Shown: piece by piece, positions 3,001 through 54,467 of the stretch
Numbering within the stretch: position 1 is the stretch's first letter
Layout of the letters: the number at the start of each line of letters is the position of its first letter
From: a virus
Virus record (IMG/VR): IMGVR_UViG_3300021365_000008
Span: 15,656 to 79,655 of that record
Strand: one strand, 5' to 3'
Length of the DNA: 64,000 bases
Made by a program: the position numbers and the translations under genes
Notes under the pieces: generated by a model
The model's input: only the letters and a program-made list of their open reading frames with translations
What the model was told of the DNA's origin: nothing
The model's database searches: none

Positions 3001-3318
3001 GAGGATAAGGAAGAAAACATCCGGTTTTATAATGCCGCGCTGAACCTAGCTGGGCGTGTAGAAACAGACCTAGGTTTGTTTGGTGACCCTAGAAATATCT
3101 TTGAAATGACGCAAGGAGATATGCTTGCTGTGATCGGATTATTAGGACGTGTAGCAGATTTCTTTGACGCTATGAAAGATACTGCAATGGGCGAGGGAGA
3201 AATTACTACAGGCGTGTATGCTGGTAAGAATAAGATGTTGCATCACGGTGGTAAGCTGATACCGCATGTTAACTCTGTACAGCGAATAGTAAACCAGATG
3301 GAGCGTGAGATGAATTAA
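1..3318 (+). CDS. Giant virion/ejection (RNAP-cluster) protein, C-terminal part; 5' truncated by the window
   Basis: Frame is open from base 1; >1098 aa, largely helical; C-terminal block IKKTTLGPLLMQFRSWLPEAIATRF resembles the ends of crAss-like giant virion proteins. No DxDxD RNAP catalytic motif in this part. Confidence 0.6.
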   Translation: MSNAEQTLLADVYAQSMNLMDLTNKKASEVAERIQAQSEYDSDIESMSFLPNVAQAEGYQLDSRDMLVTYKKKRVRQFQELMSRYKNNKMFRKRVAPRLLQEEEELRMLTDDSVVIDESYLLAMGQRELDLAKRVIQSVDATDPEISVALSALQNVYSVIDFYGQYRSISKDPDLKDAATSLLRESAQLREEYLEKARVVLREAAKREFAGKGVNVDANTFEELVESGFVSSTFQDASRQGLTELSFLDKIVRDSAQKQRVEFNRRAKEYLDASAKMKKGAYFKKYSWNGFVELDAQGNPTSRIITMLNDQFDIARERKFKTSSKQEYLKWLKQTSLKLNIDSVFVDKDGVVSRKKNPAYERLLEEKLGKYGASEALRQQETRYQEFVDRREAAYDNIELTVPRAEQEEAKAVWMQENKWRKDLRFPLKEVNGKSSEFYDARFDELMADKDAKAFYEFYRQQIMELGRMLPAHKMRKQARLLENGLFIPAISKTLMEEVMETQGYGEKVGKLTDSFKASLTVDAEANLNNLIDPTTGRPRQELPTYFLGQLDPKTQEYDMDKTFLGFAMMATTYDSKNQVEDKVKMVRSVLSGATIIKDPNNKVNSALDPKLRDAKAREDVMRSVDTVVDTFYGVQQRRDITGNAPESMWTREQKAKIEDLREQLLTAQSKEAKERIRKEIEEATPKLSTVKAARQAQQLSQAMGMAWNLPAGIVNMVFGGLSVFKHAAGRADFNEKHARKATGIMLSSSLNMMTLNTGLTKNEVAEKIQNMMINMDVLKDFTEMRYDVRKFAAQAGESGVAQKGRGVKDKLRMYEIQRSSEYFVYGQGTIATLLSIEVDGKNLWEHMDADGVIQLDGYRPGEAKHLELMNKIDQINKRIHGNYDPNSPIAIKKTTLGPLLMQFRSWLPEAIATRFEKESYDPYLDRTVKGSFRTMWNKKHLRAMFPLLLPSFIRTKGMDTLPPEISELDQENIRKFSAGVRQWLQVMVFLSLLRAMKDDEDKEENIRFYNAALNLAGRVETDLGLFGDPRNIFEMTQGDMLAVIGLLGRVADFFDAMKDTAMGEGEITTGVYAGKNKMLHHGGKLIPHVNSVQRIVNQMEREMN

Positions 3319-4502
3319 CGCTCAGCCATCAGCTTTAATACTTCTTGAATACGTTGCAGCAATGTGTTACCCGTCTCGTTACGGGTAGTGCGTAGTTGCT
3401 CTTCTCTGTAGAATGGGTCTAGCTCCGCCCCAAAACATATTGTGCCCCACTGACCTAGAAGTATTGAAAAGTCTATTACGTTAAAGTATCCATTATTGTT
3501 TAAATCTCCTGGAAGCCAGTATGGGTTTTCCCAGTTACTTAACATCAATAGCATATCGTTCATTCCCACCACGTAGTCGCCGTCTATATCTCCTACGCAT
3601 ACATTGGCGTCATTATTGACTAGACCTGGACGGGTAATGGGGATCATAGTATGCATACGTTCTATTTGCCCTTCAGTAAAGTTTGTTCTGCATGAATCCA
3701 CGTAGTAGTCCATGTGGTTGTTAGGTGTATAGTTATACGCTCCAGGAGGGCATATAGGATTCTCACAACTCCAACTTACCTTGATGGGTGGTGTATCGCA
3801 TACATAGTCACCCGTTTCTTCGCAAGGGCCAAGGTCTTCTCCGCAGTAGTCTACGTTTCTAAATACGTGATGCAAGCTAAGGTAGTGACCCACTTCATGG
3901 ATAAGTGTTTTGTTTTCATCTCTATCGCCCCACAGGTGGTCTCCAATACGTCCAAAGACATTAGCCCTAACCCACACTCCGTCGAATGGGGTAGGAGCTT
4001 GCGCTGTCCAAGCAAATCCCAAAATCCCAGCACAGAATTGCGGGAATATATGCACGTTCATGTACAGGCTTCTATCCCATACAATATCCTCTAGGTAGTC
4101 TTCGGTTGTGCTCCACCCATAGTAGCTATAAGGTACGCAGGTGTTGTACAGCTCAAGGGTTGGCTCCATGCCTTCCACCTCATCTAGGTTATGGTATTCT
4201 ATGGCAAGAAGGTCAAAAGTAAACATAGCTTCCTCGAACTCTTCGTTGAGGTGTTCGTGTGCATCCCATATGATCGCATCGCCCAACATGCTATACTCGT
4301 AGGGGAAGCTGTCTGTGTAGTGTACGTGTACTACGTAGTTTACGTTCTTCCAAGACGGAGGGTCTGGGTTATACCCCATCATCTTTATGGCTTGGGGTTC
4401 ATTCCCAAATACTACGCAGCTGTCCTGTGCAGAAAGATTAAGGGTGAAGCAAAGAAGAGCTAGTATACTAACCCTACTTTTTATTTTTCTTATTAGCGAC
4501 AT
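3315..4502 (-). CDS. Secreted zinc metalloprotease, M43/pappalysin family, with C-terminal dockerin-like double EF-hand
   Basis: HEVGHYLSLHH zinc motif, GDYVCDTP, Met-turn NHMDY; signal peptide ending LSA|QD; GDIDGDYVVGMNDMLLMLSNW and GDLNNNGYFNVIDFSILLGQWG repeats. Confidence 0.88.
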   Translation of the reverse strand: MSLIRKIKSRVSILALLCFTLNLSAQDSCVVFGNEPQAIKMMGYNPDPPSWKNVNYVVHVHYTDSFPYEYSMLGDAIIWDAHEHLNEEFEEAMFTFDLLAIEYHNLDEVEGMEPTLELYNTCVPYSYYGWSTTEDYLEDIVWDRSLYMNVHIFPQFCAGILGFAWTAQAPTPFDGVWVRANVFGRIGDHLWGDRDENKTLIHEVGHYLSLHHVFRNVDYCGEDLGPCEETGDYVCDTPPIKVSWSCENPICPPGAYNYTPNNHMDYYVDSCRTNFTEGQIERMHTMIPITRPGLVNNDANVCVGDIDGDYVVGMNDMLLMLSNWENPYWLPGDLNNNGYFNVIDFSILLGQWGTICFGAELDPFYREEQLRTTRNETGNTLLQRIQEVLKLMAER

Positions 4503-4779
4503 GTATGAAGTGTAGGTAGTGAAAAATTGCAGCCCATATGAATGTTACCGCAAGCCCTACATTCAACATGACCTCTGTCCATGGCGGACATGAAAGGGTC
4601 AAGAAATTAAATAGTGATCCGGCTGAGATACCCGCCAGTCCAAACTTTACCATAATGCGTTCCCAGTTAGGGAGTTTGTAAAGAAGACTGTTACGTCCAA
4701 AAGCAAACACCATAAAAGCAGTGATGCTTACACATATGCATAGATTGCATATTGCATTAATCGTTGTCAGAGTCATCAT
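4474..4779 (-). CDS. Small 3-TM membrane protein
   Basis: 101 aa, three hydrophobic segments, basic C-terminus; overlaps both neighbours. Confidence 0.7.
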   Translation of the reverse strand: MMTLTTINAICNLCICVSITAFMVFAFGRNSLLYKLPNWERIMVKFGLAGISAGSLFNFLTLSCPPWTEVMLNVGLAVTFIWAAIFHYLHFIHVANKKNKK

Positions 4780-5062
4780 AGTTGTCAGCGTCTGGGAATA
4801 ACCTATTGCTGAACATCTCTACTCCTTTAAGTCCAAGGAATCCTAAAATGAACCCAATGGAAAGTTCGTACTTGCTATCAAAACCTGTGATATCAAGTAC
4901 AACCGGAGTAATGTAATTGGCAGACGCGACGCCTGTAATTAAAGAGAAGAAGGTAGCTTTAAGATTGATAGCAGCTTTCTTGCCTAGCATAAGCAAGGAG
5001 CCAAACAATCCAGCTACACTGATACCTACGTTGATACCAATCTCAGCAAGCAGTTCTTTCAT
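4757..5062 (-). CDS. Holin-like membrane protein
   Basis: 101 aa, three Gly-rich hydrophobic helices (GLFGSLL, LITGVASANY, IGFILGFLGLKG), acidic tail. Confidence 0.6.
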   Translation of the reverse strand: MKELLAEIGINVGISVAGLFGSLLMLGKKAAINLKATFFSLITGVASANYITPVVLDITGFDSKYELSIGFILGFLGLKGVEMFSNRLFPDADNYDDSDND

Positions 5063-5074
5063 GAATAGAAGAGT

Positions 5075-5209
5075 TTACCGGCCCTGACCTCGGTACTTCT
5101 TCTTGTAGAGCTTAGAACTCTTGTTGGTAGAGCTTTTAGTTTTAGCGTGAATACCAGGTCGGGATACGCTTGCTCTCTCTAGTTTGACTAATTCTTTAAT
5201 GCGGGCCAT
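5075..5209 (-). CDS. Small basic protein, 44 aa (not in ORF track)
   Basis: Manual translation MARIKELVKLERASVSRPGIHAKTKSSTNKSSKLYKKKYRGQGR; directly behind a TATATTTG box. Confidence 0.7.
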   Translation of the reverse strand: MARIKELVKLERASVSRPGIHAKTKSSTNKSSKLYKKKYRGQGR

Positions 5210-5212
5210 GGA

Positions 5213-5230
5213 CAAATATAACTAAATATA
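5213..5230 (-). promoter_or_regulatory. Bacteroidota sigma-A type -7 box (tandem TATATTTA / TATATTTG)
   Basis: Minus strand reads TATATTTAGTTATATTTGTCCATG; matches TAnnTTTG 3 nt before the ATG at 5209. Confidence 0.6.
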
Positions 5231-5242
5231 ATTAGAATAGTG

Positions 5243-5316
5243 TGCGCCTGGTAGGACTTGAACCTACGACCAATGGATTATGAGTCCACTGCTCTAACCA
5301 ACTGAGCTACAGGCGC
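5243..5316 (-). tRNA. tRNA with CAU anticodon (Ile2 or elongator Met)
   Basis: GCGCCTG/CAGGCGC acceptor stem, D-arm TAGCTCAGTTGGTTAGAGC, anticodon loop CTCATAA, T-loop GGTTCAAGTCC; no encoded CCA. Confidence 0.92.
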
Positions 5317-5361
5317 ATAAGATTATGCCTTATACATCTTTCAATGTAGTGCGTTTGTGAG

Positions 5362-5447
5362 TAGCCGGGGCGGGACTCGAACCCGCACGATCAGTTCTGA
5401 TCAACAGATTTTAAGTCTGTCGTGTCTACCAATTCCACCACCCGGCC
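5362..5447 (-). tRNA. trnL: tRNA-Leu(UAA)
   Basis: GGCCGGG/CCCGGCT acceptor, GTGGAATTGGTAGACAC D-arm, ACAGA-CTTAAAA-TCTGT anticodon arm, long variable arm, GCGGGTTCGAGTCCCGC T-arm. Confidence 0.94.
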
Positions 5448-47053: not shown

Positions 47054-47437
47054 ATGACTTTAAAAGAATGCCTAGAGGTCTATCAGGCCTTTCAGAAATT
47101 GAGCGCAATGAACTTGCCTCTGAAAAGCAGTTGGATGATTGCACAGAATATTTCTAAGCTAGAACCGATAATTGACTTATTTCAAAAGTCACGTAGCAAA
47201 TTCATTGACTCCTTACGGGAAAAGGCTAGCGTAGATGATCAAGGTAATCCATTAGTATCAGATGAACTATCAGCTGAATTCACAGCACAAATAGAGATTC
47301 TGTTAAACGAGGATCAAAAGGTCCGCTTAAAGAAGGTAACGCTTATTGATGACGGACAATTGTCTATTGAGCCAGGTATTCTTCTGGCTGCTATGGACTA
47401 CCTTATCGTAAAAGACAATGGCGATAAAGCTAGCTGA
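47054..47437 (+). CDS. Putative fibre chaperone (helical)
   Basis: NLPLKSSWMIAQNISKL...LLNEDQKV; located in the fibre cluster. Confidence 0.5.
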   Translation: MTLKECLEVYQAFQKLSAMNLPLKSSWMIAQNISKLEPIIDLFQKSRSKFIDSLREKASVDDQGNPLVSDELSAEFTAQIEILLNEDQKVRLKKVTLIDDGQLSIEPGILLAAMDYLIVKDNGDKAS

Positions 47438-48842
47438 TGTACTCAACAATGTAAATTCCGCATATCCGGTTATAAATGCTCATGAGCAAACAATCGTGGG
47501 CTTTTATAACGGGGCATCTTCTAGTGCTGCTACGTCATTACAACTTTATTGGTCGGGGGCTGAAAAACTCTTGTTGTCTTCTGATGGCACAACGCAAGGA
47601 ACTCTTTTTGCAACTTCTTTGCCGTACGCTACATCTACCTCTAATGGAGCAATAGCTTCGGATTTTGCTAATAAGCTTCTCACCGACAAAGGAGGAATTG
47701 TAACGGCCACAGATGACAAGTTAGATGGAGGTAATGGCGCTGTAGGGGCATATCTTGCACAGGTAGTAGGTGCAGGAACAGCTTCGGATACAGGCCGAGC
47801 ATCTATGAGCCGGTGGACTGAATTAATTCAGGACTTTGATATGTACGAGTCTATTGACTCTGCCGGCATTACAGATATTATTGATACAGCTAATGAGCAT
47901 TTTTATCTAGCTGGGTTTGATACTGCGAATAATAAAACTCGCAAGCTTTCTTGGGAAGATACAATTGGCGCCATTAATGGAGCATTAGTGCAAGAGTTGG
48001 TAAACTCTGGCATGATTACCAGTGCACAGGGAGGAGATAGTGGTTCAGGAACAATAGGCGATATTAACGGTGATGGGGAAGTTACCTCTGCAGATTTATT
48101 GCTGCTGCTGGGAGGGTTTGGAAATGAGGGAGCGGGTTCTTTTACTACAGCTCGAACCATTATGTCGGGAAGCGAAACATCTGCAACTGTTGCAGTAACA
48201 TCTACTGGTAGTACCTCTTCTGGTACTAATGGGACGTTTGTGCTATCAGACCTGACCACTTTTAATTACCCAGGTATATTAAGCTTGGCCGGAAATATTT
48301 ACGGATTTGGCACAGAGTCCTATTCTGTTAATGCGGCTAACGTATATAAATTGCAGGAGTGCACTGCATCAGCTTCAAATGCTAATATTTGGGGTAATAG
48401 GTATTTGTATGTGACTATGAATACTTCAGTTGAGTTTACTGGTCCTGATACTCTTTGGGCACTTATGCATGTTAAATTAATTGACAGTTCTGCAAGCAGT
48501 AATGAGGCAGAATGCGTGTATTATATGTCTCCAGGTGGTACAACTGGTAATCAAGGTTTAATAGCAAATGATGGTTCTGGTGTTGGGTTTCCTATAGGAG
48601 TTGTCAGTGACGTAGGGTGGGTTGCTAGCAGTAATCCGTCATATATCTCAGGTAATATTATTTCTGTTGCGGACAACTACCAAAATCATGCGGCTAGTTT
48701 AGAAAGTGGCTTTAGTTTGGCATTTAACAGCAGCCCGCTTGGAACTTACATAGAGGACGTAGAGATCAAGATTTTCTTTCATAGCATAAATCAAAACGTA
48801 GAAGTGACTGTAAACAATATTTTATTCGAGGTAAAGAGCTGA
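47418..48842 (+). CDS. Tail fibre protein with dockerin-like EF-hand
   Basis: N-terminus MAIKLADVLNN; GDINGDGEVTSADLLLLLGGFG. Confidence 0.7.
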   Translation: MAIKLADVLNNVNSAYPVINAHEQTIVGFYNGASSSAATSLQLYWSGAEKLLLSSDGTTQGTLFATSLPYATSTSNGAIASDFANKLLTDKGGIVTATDDKLDGGNGAVGAYLAQVVGAGTASDTGRASMSRWTELIQDFDMYESIDSAGITDIIDTANEHFYLAGFDTANNKTRKLSWEDTIGAINGALVQELVNSGMITSAQGGDSGSGTIGDINGDGEVTSADLLLLLGGFGNEGAGSFTTARTIMSGSETSATVAVTSTGSTSSGTNGTFVLSDLTTFNYPGILSLAGNIYGFGTESYSVNAANVYKLQECTASASNANIWGNRYLYVTMNTSVEFTGPDTLWALMHVKLIDSSASSNEAECVYYMSPGGTTGNQGLIANDGSGVGFPIGVVSDVGWVASSNPSYISGNIISVADNYQNHAASLESGFSLAFNSSPLGTYIEDVEIKIFFHSINQNVEVTVNNILFEVKS

Positions 48843-51565: not shown

Positions 51566-52345
51566 ATGGCAAGCTGGAAAAAAATAATTGCGGATGGCGC
51601 GTCATTGTTGGATATTGGCACACCTCAAAATACGGATAAGGTTCTGATCCAAGACGTAACAGATAATGTTATTAAGTACGTTGACTGGTCTAATGTTGGA
51701 GGTGGAAGTGGTATTACAGAAGTTGCTGATGATACCAGTCCAACGTTAGGGGGGCATCTTGCTACTGGAGGGAACCAAATACGCCTAGATACGAACAATG
51801 TTGGTATAATAGGAGTAAACACAGGGTCAAGTACTCTGGACGTTATTAAAGTTAATGCTTCGAATCAGGTACAGCTTGGTAGTAGTTCGTCACCAACTAG
51901 TAGTCCAGGCAAGACTATACTCGGGTCTAATTATCATGACACTACTAATATTAATGTTAGTACCCTTGGAACATATGGCGTGGGTTCAGATATTACAGAA
52001 TACGGAAATAGTACATCTACTTTTGCTGGGCGGGTATATTATCTTAATAGTACCGGAGGGTGGTCGAATGGTACGCCAACAACAGCAGCTGCGCAAGACA
52101 GCTTATTGACTATAGCCACGGGTGGCCTCAGCACACGTGGTATGCTTTTGCGAGGATTTGTTTGCGTTGCAGTAGGTAACCAAAGTGGTAGTTTAACTGT
52201 AGGCGCACCGGTATTTATGTCAAGTAACTCGTCTGTAACTGACGTTGCACCAACGGGCAATAATGTCTATCAACGAATTCTTGGACATGCAGTAGCTGCT
52301 AAAGTTATTTACTTTAATCCGTCTCAAGAAAATATTGAGTTGTAA
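51566..52345 (+). CDS. Tail fibre protein
   Basis: N-terminus MASWKKI; DDTSPTLGGHL; C-terminal GMLLRG...RILGHA...IYFNP. Confidence 0.72.
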   Translation: MASWKKIIADGASLLDIGTPQNTDKVLIQDVTDNVIKYVDWSNVGGGSGITEVADDTSPTLGGHLATGGNQIRLDTNNVGIIGVNTGSSTLDVIKVNASNQVQLGSSSSPTSSPGKTILGSNYHDTTNINVSTLGTYGVGSDITEYGNSTSTFAGRVYYLNSTGGWSNGTPTTAAAQDSLLTIATGGLSTRGMLLRGFVCVAVGNQSGSLTVGAPVFMSSNSSVTDVAPTGNNVYQRILGHAVAAKVIYFNPSQENIEL

Positions 52346-53163
52346 TGCCAGGCTCTATAGTATCTATATCGGGAGTTGCTATTGCAAATGTTGCTGGTAT
52401 ATCTGGAAGGGGAATAGCTAATATTGCAAGGTTTGCAGGTAGGCCTACCTCTCTGTATAGTCAAGAATGGGAGTTTGACAATCAGGCAGTAAATCTAACT
52501 AGTAGCGGTAATGGATGGTCCCCTACTGGAACACATTTGAACTGGGCCAGCGGAACAAACGCCTGTTCAGACACAAACAATAGGTGGTTTTCTACCTCTA
52601 CGAGAACAGCTACTGGTTTTCGTGTAGACTCAAACGCTACTGGATCTAACCAGACTGGTCCAGCTGGAGCACATAACGGTAGTGGGGGCCATGACACTGG
52701 TGCTAACACTAGGTATCTTTTTGCCGAGACGTCTGGAAGCTTAGATACCAACAATGTTTTCATCGCTAGGATGCCTGCGTTCAACCCAGGCGCGTCAATC
52801 ACAGATCAGACAAACAACTTAGACCTTAAGTTTTACATGCATGGATATGGAAGGGACTGTGGTTCTCTTTATGTGTATGTAAGCACTGAGTCAAGTACAA
52901 CTGACGGTTCGTCCAACACCACGCTTCTTTGTCAATACGACGGTAATGAGTCAAACAACACTACTTGGACTAGAAGTAGCGGAGCCAGCACCCCAAGCTC
53001 TGTGAATTTTAATGGTAACTCCTCGAGTTGGCAACAGATCACCGTCAGCTTGAACAGCATAAGAACGGATAAGGGTGATAGATACATATATTTCGTATAT
53101 GTCGGGACAGACAGCTTCAGGGGTGACCTATCTTTAGATACAATAACTATAGAGGAATCGTAA
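52345..53163 (+). CDS. MAM-domain fibre tip / putative receptor-binding protein
   Basis: TGP..AH...YLFAETS, FYMHGYG..CGSLYV, WQQITVSL, GDLSLDTI. Confidence 0.7.
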   Translation: MPGSIVSISGVAIANVAGISGRGIANIARFAGRPTSLYSQEWEFDNQAVNLTSSGNGWSPTGTHLNWASGTNACSDTNNRWFSTSTRTATGFRVDSNATGSNQTGPAGAHNGSGGHDTGANTRYLFAETSGSLDTNNVFIARMPAFNPGASITDQTNNLDLKFYMHGYGRDCGSLYVYVSTESSTTDGSSNTTLLCQYDGNESNNTTWTRSSGASTPSSVNFNGNSSSWQQITVSLNSIRTDKGDRYIYFVYVGTDSFRGDLSLDTITIEES

Positions 53164-53372: not shown

Positions 53373-53897
53373 ATGATAAAGAAATCGTCCCATATGAAGC
53401 TGGAGCTGTATCGAATGGCAACAGGCAAGGACAGCTCACTAGGAACACTATTTATGAGTACCGGTGAGGGTGAAGGAAAAAGAAAGTATCTTTGTTTTAC
53501 CTTAGAAGATGAGTACCGCGAAGAAAAACTCATGCACGAAACGCGCATTCCAGCAGGTACTTATAATATAAAGCTACGTACAGTAGGCGGGTATAATCAG
53601 AAGTACTCGCATAGATTTAAAGATATACATGTAGGTATGCTGGAGTTGCAGGATGTGCCAAATTTTAAGTACATCTTAATTCACTGCGGCAACACAGACG
53701 ACCATACTTCTGGATGTTTACTTGTAGGCTATGGGCCGAAAAGAGTTTCTGGAGGAGAGTTTGAATTGTATAATAGCACCCAGGCGTATTTTGACGTGTA
53801 CCCGCCTATTGCAAACCATCTCGCGGATGGAGGTACCGTAACAATTGAAATAAATGACTTTGATGAAATTCCAGAATGGATGGGGCAACCCGAATAA
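53373..53897 (+). CDS. DUF5675 / L,D-peptidase-like endolysin
   Basis: CFTLED, IPAGTY, ILIHCGNT..HTSGCLLVG. Confidence 0.8.
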   Translation: MIKKSSHMKLELYRMATGKDSSLGTLFMSTGEGEGKRKYLCFTLEDEYREEKLMHETRIPAGTYNIKLRTVGGYNQKYSHRFKDIHVGMLELQDVPNFKYILIHCGNTDDHTSGCLLVGYGPKRVSGGEFELYNSTQAYFDVYPPIANHLADGGTVTIEINDFDEIPEWMGQPE

Positions 53898-54018
53898 ACA
53901 TAACGACAAGTTTATTTTTAAACTGCGCGTTGGCAAGCTGACTGTAGTTGACGTAATTGTCGACTTGAGCAGCAAAGTTTTTACTTTTACCTTATTGAAC
54001 TTTACAATTAAACTGTAA
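53863..54018 (+). CDS. 51-aa protein between endolysin and holin (not in ORF track)
   Basis: MKFQNGWGNPNKHNDKFIFKLRVGKLTVVDVIVDLSSKVFTFTLLNFTIKL; TAATG coupling to the holin. Confidence 0.65.
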   Translation: MKFQNGWGNPNKHNDKFIFKLRVGKLTVVDVIVDLSSKVFTFTLLNFTIKL

Positions 54019-54467
54019 TGGATAAAGTCCGCGATACCAAGCTCGGGTCGTGGCTAAAAGAGAAGGCTCCTAAGATTTTTGATTTAGTAGGCGACGCATT
54101 ACCAGATGCGGGTGTCTTAGGAGTAGTAAAGAATCTAATACATGCAGACAGCGGCCTAACCCCGGAGCAAAAATTAGAATTCGAAAAGCTCGAACAAGAA
54201 GAGCGTGTCTCGTTGGAAAACAACATTACCCAACGATGGACTGCAGATGTATCGAGTAAAAGCTGGCTGGCACGTAATATCCGACCGGCGATTGTTGCAA
54301 CATTGGTAGTGTTCCTTATTGTGTTTATTGTTATGGACACACTGTCGGTTGGTTACGAGGTGCGAGATATATGGGTAAAGATGTATGAAACTGTTTTGAT
54401 TACAGCAATTGGCGGCTATTTCGTAGTGCGATCAATTGATAAAAACCAACTACCATGGCAACGCTAA
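54018..54467 (+). CDS. Holin (3TM/GTA-type-like)
   Basis: RW.AD..S.SWLARNIRP, two TM helices, GGYFVVRSIDK. Confidence 0.8.
   Translation: MDKVRDTKLGSWLKEKAPKIFDLVGDALPDAGVLGVVKNLIHADSGLTPEQKLEFEKLEQEERVSLENNITQRWTADVSSKSWLARNIRPAIVATLVVFLIVFIVMDTLSVGYEVRDIWVKMYETVLITAIGGYFVVRSIDKNQLPWQR

Follow-up and report, generated by a model that had tools for sequence, protein, structure and literature searches.

In the textbook account of diderm lysis, a holin, an endolysin and a spanin or disruptin take part and proteases are not included, and in Shiga-toxin (Stx) phages a periplasmic exoprotein is set free by neighbouring lysis genes. To our knowledge, lysis in phages of Bacteroidota is poorly understood. 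Protein release that depends on a holin and an endolysin is known as type 10 secretion (PMC9527704, PMC10847046), and a secreted metzincin of phage origin, Mtz, occurs in Listeria together with the TIMP-like lipoprotein Tim; when Mtz is expressed, cells become more sensitive to phage lysins and virion release goes up (PMC8235301). Among metzincins, the unicellular pappalysins are kept latent by an N-terminal cysteine switch and are trimmed autolytically at both the N- and the C-terminus, the reference points in the pro-segment of mirolysin being Cys23 and Ser54-Arg55, and an Asp in the S1' pocket sets their specificity for Lys or Arg at P1' (PMC6949598). Here we describe a pappalysin gene in a 64,000-nucleotide stretch of viral DNA (hereafter the window), which comprises bases 15656-79655 of a 79,874-bp IMG/VR virus record (IMGVR_UViG_3300021365_000008) with a completeness rating of 99%. 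The gene closes a cassette that encodes a basic peptide, a holin-family protein, a partner with three transmembrane segments (3-TM protein) and the M43 protease (Table 1). No description of a phage-borne pappalysin was found in the literature searched.

Judged from its sequence and modelled fold, the protein is a catalytically intact M43B metzincin with a predicted preference for Lys or Arg at P1'. It matches Pfam PF05572 (Peptidase_M43) at E 1.6e-17, with 64.3 bits against a cut-off of 23, and the family profile finds the solved structures of mirolysin (E 3.4e-25) and ulilysin (E 1e-21). An AlphaFold2 model has a predicted local distance difference test score (pLDDT) of 76 overall and above 84 over residues 51-200, and its best Foldseek matches are mirolysin (6r7w, 6r7v), PAPP-A and ulilysin (2cki), with probability 1.00 and target TM-scores of 0.54-0.68. 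Homologues were compared in alignments of 40 and of 116 sequences. The residues H202, E203, H206 and H212 of the zinc motif, the Met-turn M264 and Tyr266 are invariant (116/116), and Asp269 of the S1' pocket, which is aligned with mirolysin Asp289 in an MDYxxD pattern, is present in 115 of the 116. These matches and conserved residues confirm the M43 metzincin that had been recognized in the original prediction, which was made from the sequence of the window without database searches.

The same prediction had noticed a dockerin-like tail. As a single sequence, the double calcium-binding repeat (residues 303-322 and 331-350) scores under the cut-off of Dockerin_1 in Pfam (E 0.098, 13.3 bits, cut-off 22.9); the family profile matches solved dockerins at E values from 3.9e-7 (2y3n_B) to 5.5e-3, which bears the assignment out. 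It is followed by a conserved motif, GAELDPFY/REE, which is a possible autolytic site before Arg. No muralytic or peptidoglycan-binding domain was found in the 395-amino-acid (aa) protein in searches of Pfam, PHROGs and NCBIfam, where only M43 and dockerin matched. A single dockerin-type calcium-binding loop (48057-48107) is also present in a fibre-like open reading frame (ORF) of the window (47418-48842), with E 0.0023 for Dockerin_1 and, in a genome search, E 3.9e-5, under the cut-off.

It is also evident that features of Sec export are conserved in the family. Of 102 homologues, 98 have a K or R among their first 8 residues, the core of the presequence is strongly hydrophobic, the -1 position is G, A or S in 96/102, and Gln occupies the +1 position in 105/116; the median presequence length among the homologues is 18 aa. 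Gln at +1 is specific to signal peptidase I substrates of Bacteroidota (the Q-rule; PMC5837995, PMC10653852). The claims that the protease has a Sec signal cleaved before Gln, and that such a Gln is typical of proteins exported by Bacteroidota, thus agree with the conserved n-, h- and c-regions and with this rule. A public gene call of the same protein (P0001, 100% identical, 354 aa) begins at Met42 and omits the signal peptide; because residues 26-41 are conserved, the 395-aa ORF should be considered the real gene. Searches of the M43 protein against Pfam and NCBIfam gave no match to Por_Secre_tail, the sorting domain of the type IX secretion system (T9SS), and a test for a lipobox found none. 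Since both are lacking, the enzyme would not cross the outer membrane on its own.

The cleavage site is followed by a candidate pro-segment. Cys29, four residues past the site, is invariant in all 112 ungapped sequences, K or R is found at position 40 in 85/116 and K52 in 90/116, and the mature part has 11 Cys, an odd number, in 85 of the 116 homologues. By comparison with the described pappalysins, Cys29 is a candidate cysteine switch and K/R40 and K52 are possible sites of autolytic activation, and the M43 protease would be made as a latent zymogen.

The original prediction placed the protease at the end of four tightly packed minus-strand genes converging on a giant virion gene, and this layout is found in the ORF listing and the reverse-strand sequence. 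Consecutive genes from the basic peptide through the holin and the 3-TM protein to M43 are spaced by +12, -23 and -29 nucleotides (nt), and the stop codon of M43 overlaps, in the tetranucleotide TTAA (3315-3318), with that of the giant virion ORF, which is on the plus strand and ends at 3318. Hole formation by the protein encoded at 4757..5062 is predicted from its family match, its hydropathy and its neighbour genes; its family has 145 cluster representatives. The 3-TM protein, in which hydropathy gives the three hydrophobic segments noticed earlier, has a weak PHROGs match to a holin (phrog_2508, E 0.068) and only 4 close homologues among 5.8 billion proteins. Searches for related loci with the single holin-like or 3-TM protein returned just two contigs, both of which had been found before, and the holin-like protein had no tblastn match in 50,697 GenBank phages.

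Four contexts of the holin family reach far enough downstream to see what follows, and a peptidoglycan hydrolase is found within 0-1.8 kb in 4/4. In loci L144/L145 and L148/L149 it is Amidase_2, which comes directly after the pair or one small gene later, and in L150 and L151, which carry a more distant holin relative, it is Peptidase_M15_3. Homologues of the 3-TM protein lie between the holin homologue and Amidase_2 in L144 (4281-4565, 46% identical) and L148 (3874-4182, 41%). Because a homologous pair precedes Amidase_2 elsewhere, the holin and 3-TM genes constitute a true holin module of two genes, which normally has an endolysin as its cargo, and this synteny supports the view that the M43 protease of the window fills an endolysin-type slot, as was meant when the genes were first called a lysis-type cassette.

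To see how M43 is placed in other phages, ORFs were called in all loci and clustered, and the clusters were mapped. After dereplication with an M43 identity threshold of 97%, and with 1.8 kb or more of upstream sequence required, 35 distinct lineages were left, in 29 of which a holin-family gene is found on the same strand within 1.8 kb upstream of M43. In the majority of those 29, the holin is a homologue of the window's main holin (phrog_3427), and M43 usually lies within the main lysis cassette of these relatives. The window itself has its main pair of candidate lysin and holin elsewhere, at 53.4-54.5 kb, just as the original prediction had stated; most relatives have homologues of these two genes on the flanks of M43, and the lysin candidate among them belongs to DUF5675, a C82-like candidate lysin (2026 preprint). 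DUF5675 or Amidase_2 is found within 1.2 kb of M43 in 11/34 lineages. The arrangement of the window, with the phrog_2359 pair ahead of M43, otherwise occurs only in L041/L042. Since M43 follows two unrelated holin families, of the phrog_3427 and the phrog_2359 type, its linkage to holins is harder to ascribe to shared ancestry alone. There is, moreover, no need to regard the cassette as a second export module, because the protease has its own Sec signal and the main holin cassette is the site of M43 in most relatives.

In a complete 64-kb relative (G001), a trio of holin, c7 and M43 closes the late operon, and a Peptidase_M15_3 endolysin is located 21 kb away, at 41.1 kb. A 50-aa lipoprotein-like ORF (lipobox ..LASC; L154:1026-1638) overlaps the start of this endolysin gene, and because both lie far from the trio, the lysis functions of G001 are split over two sites. 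The idea that M43 is the sole lysin of five relatives whose records lack DUF5675 and Amidase_2 was dropped in view of the Peptidase_M15_3 of G001. Small genes for proteins with a transmembrane segment and a coiled coil (c7, or c11 together with the secreted c13) adjoin M43 in 18 lineages, mostly between the holin and M43. In about 7 lineages, c11 (95 aa, N-terminal transmembrane segment and coiled coil) and c13 (104-106 aa, Q-rule signal) stand between the holin and M43, with c13 overlapping the M43 start (L001:1767-2371, L013:5400-5998, L040:2541-3145). The products of c11 and c13 may be spanin-like; alternatively, c13 may act as a partner of the protease or as its inhibitor. A GroES/Cpn10-like gene of 94 aa (Pfam Cpn10, E 1e-4) is found within 0.6 kb of M43 in L010, L013, L015, L016, L036, L046 and L054, and in L036 it is directly upstream of M43 in place of the holin pair.

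The M43 family was detected in 58 IMG/VR loci and in more than 160 metagenomic protein clusters, at 38-88% identity. A tblastn search with the M43 protein gave no match in the 50,697 GenBank phages, that is, no cultured phage in that collection carries the gene, and a DNA search for relatives among phages matched tRNAs only. Cellular relatives show 27-44% identity and are almost all from metagenome-assembled genomes (MAGs) of Flavobacteriales; these proteins are 800-1400 aa long and have SprB and PKD repeats, and Por_Secre_tail was detected in two of the five tested (L074, L079). In a tree of catalytic domains from 51 phage and 40 cellular sequences, a long branch parts all 51 phage sequences from the cellular ones, and its support in the Shimodaira-Hasegawa-like approximate likelihood ratio test (SH-aLRT) is 100%. 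As judged from this tree, M43 is host-type in origin and is now an established phage gene family. The original description of the protease as host-derived therefore holds only in deep time: the phage proteins form a clade of their own, and the module in the window was acquired from another phage lineage, on the side of L001-L003. Two contigs of 1.0-1.4 kb in a MAG labelled 'Methanobacteriota' (L064, L065) carry phage-type M43 genes with 66-67% identity and are most likely mis-binned phage fragments. A cellular Bacteroidota M43 of 601 aa (L066:4854-6659) ends in a dockerin-like repeat and has no detectable T9SS domain.

The acquisition is visible in sliding comparisons of nucleotide identity. 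Compared with L042, the window is mostly 71-92% identical over the basic peptide, the holin pair and the codons of the signal peptide, and identity then falls to 45-65%; compared with L001/L003, identity below 45% rises to 80-91% from about position 4400 to about 3530. In the tree, the window enzyme likewise groups with L001-L003 and the enzyme of its backbone sibling L041/42 groups elsewhere, and the type of C-terminal tail goes with the backbone of the phage, as in L041/42, and not with the catalytic module. From this discordance, the mature module is best described as obtained from another phage lineage, with a local signal peptide and a local C-terminal tail. The Arg codons had been reported to be AGA or AGG in seven of the first eight cases and CGN in the last four, and this is exactly what is found; AGR makes up 8/15 of the Arg codons of the window M43 overall versus 13% in 23 large ORFs of the window. 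Among the loci, AGR accounts for 29-85% of the Arg codons of M43 genes, at least 50% in most, and for 13-86% in the backbones, and an AGR-rich M43 module from another lineage would explain the pattern in the window. In the dockerin-coding part (3409-3536), four marine runs show read depth raised several-fold, breaks in DNA contigs and variant letters; the segment appears to be common to several phages that occur together, and recombination is likely to take place there. The AGR-rich MAM-type fibre tip (52345-53163) was not detected in the M43 donor-like records, and its co-transfer with M43 was thus not borne out.

Table 1. Features of the M43 locus and related features in the window (positions are those of the window).
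Feature	Position	Strand	Description
M43 protease gene	4502..3315	minus	395 aa, Pfam Peptidase_M43
Signal peptide	4428..4502	minus	residues 1-25, predicted cleavage LSA/QD
Candidate pro-segment	4350..4427	minus	residues 26-51
Zinc motif HEVGHYLSLHH	3867..3899	minus	H202, E203, H206, H212
Dockerin double calcium-binding repeat	3447..3596	minus	residues 303-352; model pLDDT 89-96, two helices
GAELDPFY/REE motif and lineage-specific tail	3318..3431	minus	conserved motif; tail here a predicted amphipathic helix
Mosaic segment, mature protease module	3530..4400	minus	sliding identity, tree discordance, Arg codons
3-TM partner gene	4779..4474	minus	101 aa, three hydrophobic segments, basic C-terminus; overlaps both neighbours
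Holin-family gene	5062..4757	minus	101 aa, acidic C-terminus; phrog_2359 'holin', E 5e-12
Basic-peptide gene	5209..5075	minus	ATG start, 44 aa, net charge about +12
Tandem boxes TATATTTA and TATATTTG	5230-5223 and 5220-5213	minus	directly before basic-peptide gene
tRNA-Met and tRNA-Leu	5242-5316 and 5361-5447	minus	immediately upstream of cassette
Main lysis pair of the phage	53373..54467	plus	DUF5675 candidate lysin 53373-53897; phrog_3427 holin 54018-54467

The reading that we favour, at a little short of an even chance, is that M43 is a surface or matrix protease released by lysis, a periplasmic zymogen that lysis sets free and that cuts envelope or surface proteins. It is preferred because the enzyme has a dockerin, its relatives are surface enzymes, and the module is swapped as in host-interaction genes. 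An intact M43B enzyme with a dockerin, a Sec signal for signal peptidase I, the lack of any signal that would take the protein through the outer membrane and a conserved linkage to holins can all be read from the letters themselves; we further infer that the enzyme is latent, accumulates in the periplasm, is released and becomes active when the cell lyses, and acts on proteins of the envelope or the surface. Going by the sequence features, the protein would be exported by Sec and cut by signal peptidase I before Gln26, and by analogy to mirolysin it would fold in the periplasm, with disulfides and Ca2+, into a latent zymogen in which Cys29 blocks the zinc. Phage lysis would then serve as the release route across the outer membrane, autolysis before the conserved Lys/Arg sites would activate the enzyme, and host envelope or surface proteins would be cut before Lys or Arg, with the dockerin keeping the enzyme on a cell-surface or matrix ligand. 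The phage would probably benefit from the destruction of surface proteins or receptors on debris and neighbouring cells and from a loosened envelope, in a release akin to that of Stx-type periplasmic cargo. Digestion of receptors or of matrix is a live option.

Several observations weigh against this reading. The signal-peptide call rests on conservation among homologues. In the phage clade, neither the anchoring Arg known from the pro-segment of mirolysin nor the Cys-Gly dipeptide is present, and the AlphaFold2 model has pLDDT below 50 in the pro-segment and is unconfident at residues 21-45; because of the missing Arg and the unconfident model, the cysteine switch goes no further than inference. 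No match to cohesin (PF00963) was found in the whole 79.9-kb phage record, and docking onto virions through a cohesin, which was also considered, is unsupported since the phage has none. The adjacency of holin and M43 in related phages is partly due to shared ancestry, and the ends of late operons often take up accessory genes. The cassette in the window is co-oriented with the replication genes, so that late timing cannot be read from the window. Two metatranscriptome runs cover parts of the stretch with low-depth contigs, over all genes and at DNA-like depth, and are uninformative on transcription.

Doubtful, but the strongest of the rival readings, is a role of the enzyme within the periplasm at the outer-membrane step of lysis, where it would cut tethers between the outer membrane and peptidoglycan (OmpA/Pal-type) or other envelope proteins as a proteolytic counterpart of spanins, disruptin and LysB. 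This would fit with the tighter linkage of M43 to holins than to endolysins, as in the trio that closes the late operon of G001 far from M15_3, and with the endolysin slot that M43 fills in the window, and latency would avert early damage to the envelope. The phage-origin secreted metzincin that sensitises Listeria to phage lysins is a precedent (PMC8235301), and about 15% of phages have no spanins and use other devices (10.1101/515445). The dockerin and the surface-type relatives, however, suggest action outside the cell, and some relatives have transmembrane and coiled-coil genes (c7, c11) and small lipoproteins that are already spanin-like candidates. It is rather unlikely that the M43 zymogen is a dedicated third-step lysis protease of marine Bacteroidota phages, activated at holin triggering and severing protein tethers from the outer membrane to the cell wall; if true, this would explain why M43 travels with two unrelated holin families. 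M43 could also be a 'moron', an accessory gene, or a metabolic one, whose function is mechanistically unrelated to lysis, serving for example peptide scavenging or particle conditioning at an operon end that tolerates insertions. Although M43 is the last gene of the late operon in 19 loci, where it faces a convergent ribonucleotide reductase gene, has a codon usage foreign to several backbones and recombines as a module, we consider this improbable: the catalytic residues are intact in every lineage sampled, M43 is inside the operon between holin and DUF5675 in 8 loci, and the window lineage has re-associated M43 with a second, unrelated holin family.

That M43 is a true endolysin, a metzincin that cuts stem peptides or cross-links of peptidoglycan, is very unlikely. 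Its position behind the holin pair is that of an endolysin, Sec-exported endolysins exist, and the S1' pocket would take Lys-like side chains, among which meso-diaminopimelic acid might be counted. M43 enzymes, however, are endopeptidases of proteins and accommodate extended peptides in subsites S1' to S6' (PMC6949598), the protein has no peptidoglycan-binding or known muralytic domain, and a further lysin candidate is present in all phages that were examined in full (DUF5675 in the window, M15_3 in G001). Superinfection exclusion or receptor shedding, in which the exported protease would strip receptors in the outer membrane or exposed to the periplasm and thereby block later phages, was among the functions raised in the original prediction, and it has hardly any probability in our view. 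The export signal, the cassette's own promoter-like box and its co-orientation with early and replication genes in the window would suit such a role, but in most relatives M43 is the last gene of the structural and lysis operon and hence made late, which fits exclusion poorly, and a periplasmic enzyme cannot reach the surface-exposed loops of receptors before lysis.

The tandem TATATTT(A/G) box that was said to head the cassette is indeed present, at 5230-5213. TATATTTG fits the Bacteroidota -7 promoter consensus TAnnTTTG, and the box ends 3 nt from the ATG. Divergent relatives (L041/42, L036, L013/15/46 and L010/16) have kept a TAnnTTT(G/A) box at a distance of 3-5 nt from the start codon of the basic peptide. 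Across the window, TATATTTR was found 4 times versus 8.7 expected and TAnnTTTG 42 times versus 55 expected, without enrichment of either; TTTG-N-TAnnTTTG is likewise at or under chance, and a sigma-70 promoter scan of the window showed no enrichment, the sigma-70 model not being apt for Bacteroidota. Because the window counts are not enriched, the promoter call is made from the position of the box and its conservation alone. These suggest that the tandem box region is a Bacteroidota -7 element and that the mRNA would be leaderless or nearly so, and the gene overlaps together with the conserved -7-like box favour transcriptional coupling of the four genes. The hairpins found are all weak. A 13-bp hairpin at 3362-3393, within the tail-coding part of M43 and 44 nt beyond the stop of the giant gene, may be the terminator of the convergent transcript. 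One contig from an RNA library spans 5016-5270, from the tRNA-Met into the holin gene, and is indistinguishable from carried-over DNA. A uracil-DNA glycosylase gene, like the two tRNA genes, is located just upstream of the cassette on the same strand.

The 44-aa basic peptide belongs to a family with conserved RPG.HAKTK ... YRGQGR motifs. It matches phrog_17967 (E 9e-4) in PHROGs and nothing in Pfam and NCBIfam, and an Atlas search returned only unnamed clusters of hypothetical proteins of 44-45 aa. Seven lineages have a homologue no more than 1.8 kb from M43, in varying gene order. They occur in L005, L010, L013, L016, L022, L036, L041, L043 and L046, ahead of the holin pair, behind M43 or ahead of Amidase_2, often with a -7-type box 3-5 nt before the ATG. 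It might be a cationic disruptin-like lysis peptide or might bind nucleic acid.

The record encodes a P22-type portal and very large virion ORFs, and near-identical DNA is found in marine metagenomes from 9 studies dated 2018-2024. Gln at +1 of the signal peptides, the TAnnTTTG boxes and the taxonomy of the closest cellular homologues indicate a host in Bacteroidota, probably in Flavobacteriales. In dozens of lineages of uncultured marine phages of Flavobacteriales, a conserved M43 enzyme with an export signal, catalytically intact by sequence and putatively a zymogen, is encoded beside the holin, which points either to a new enzymatic step of envelope breakdown or to an enzyme that lysis releases and that then, after the burst, alters particles or the surfaces of hosts. 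Proteolysis may therefore contribute, in a way not yet described, to the opening or exploitation of the host envelope by these phages. Much of the organic matter of algal blooms is degraded by Flavobacteriales, and given this role an enzyme of the M43 type could also influence the turnover of particles and protein.

Compared with the solved enzymes of MEROPS M43B, mirolysin of Tannerella forsythia, which is likewise a Bacteroidota organism, and ulilysin of Methanosarcina acetivorans, the phage enzyme has in common the fold, the HEXXHXXXXXH motif, the Met-turn, the Tyr switch and the S1' Asp, as well as a Sec signal and a short pro-segment with a Cys near the new N-terminus, and Ca dependence is to be expected. 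The phage enzyme is only 20-27% identical to them, and unlike them it is phage-encoded and holin-linked and has a pro-segment without Cys-Gly or the anchoring Arg. It has a dockerin and a short lineage-specific tail instead of a T9SS C-terminal domain, and 11 conserved Cys, whereas mirolysin has 2 disulfides. The closest cellular relatives, the M43 proteins of Flavobacteriales, share the Q-rule signal and the Cys just past the cleavage site; they differ in their length, adhesin repeats, Por_Secre_tail and low identity, as given above.

Among systems of release and lysis, Stx-type and type 10 release resemble the locus in having cargo with a Sec signal beside lysis genes, which builds up in the periplasm and leaves through lysis functions; unlike Stx-type cargo, M43 would be a protease made as a zymogen, and its marine phage looks strictly lytic, with no role implied in a eukaryotic host. 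Listeria Mtz, the nearest precedent, differs in its Gram-positive host, its other metzincin family, a CI/Cro-like switch and a TIMP-like partner, of which none was identified for the phage M43. Spanins, disruptin (phiKT gp28) and the LysB of mycobacteriophages offer a possible functional analogy only, as a third component that is encoded next to the holin and endolysin and has the outermost layer as its target, since they have no sequence or architectural similarity to M43; the 44-aa basic peptide is superficially like the cationic disruptin but far less hydrophobic than an antimicrobial peptide. The closest parallel in gene order is found in the canonical holin-endolysin cassettes of L144/L145 and L148/L149, which share with the window the holin family, the overlapping 3-TM partner, the order and the tight packing. 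The cargo of these cassettes, an Amidase_2 endolysin, is cytoplasmic and depends on the holin, whereas the cargo in the window is a Sec-exported protease that does not.

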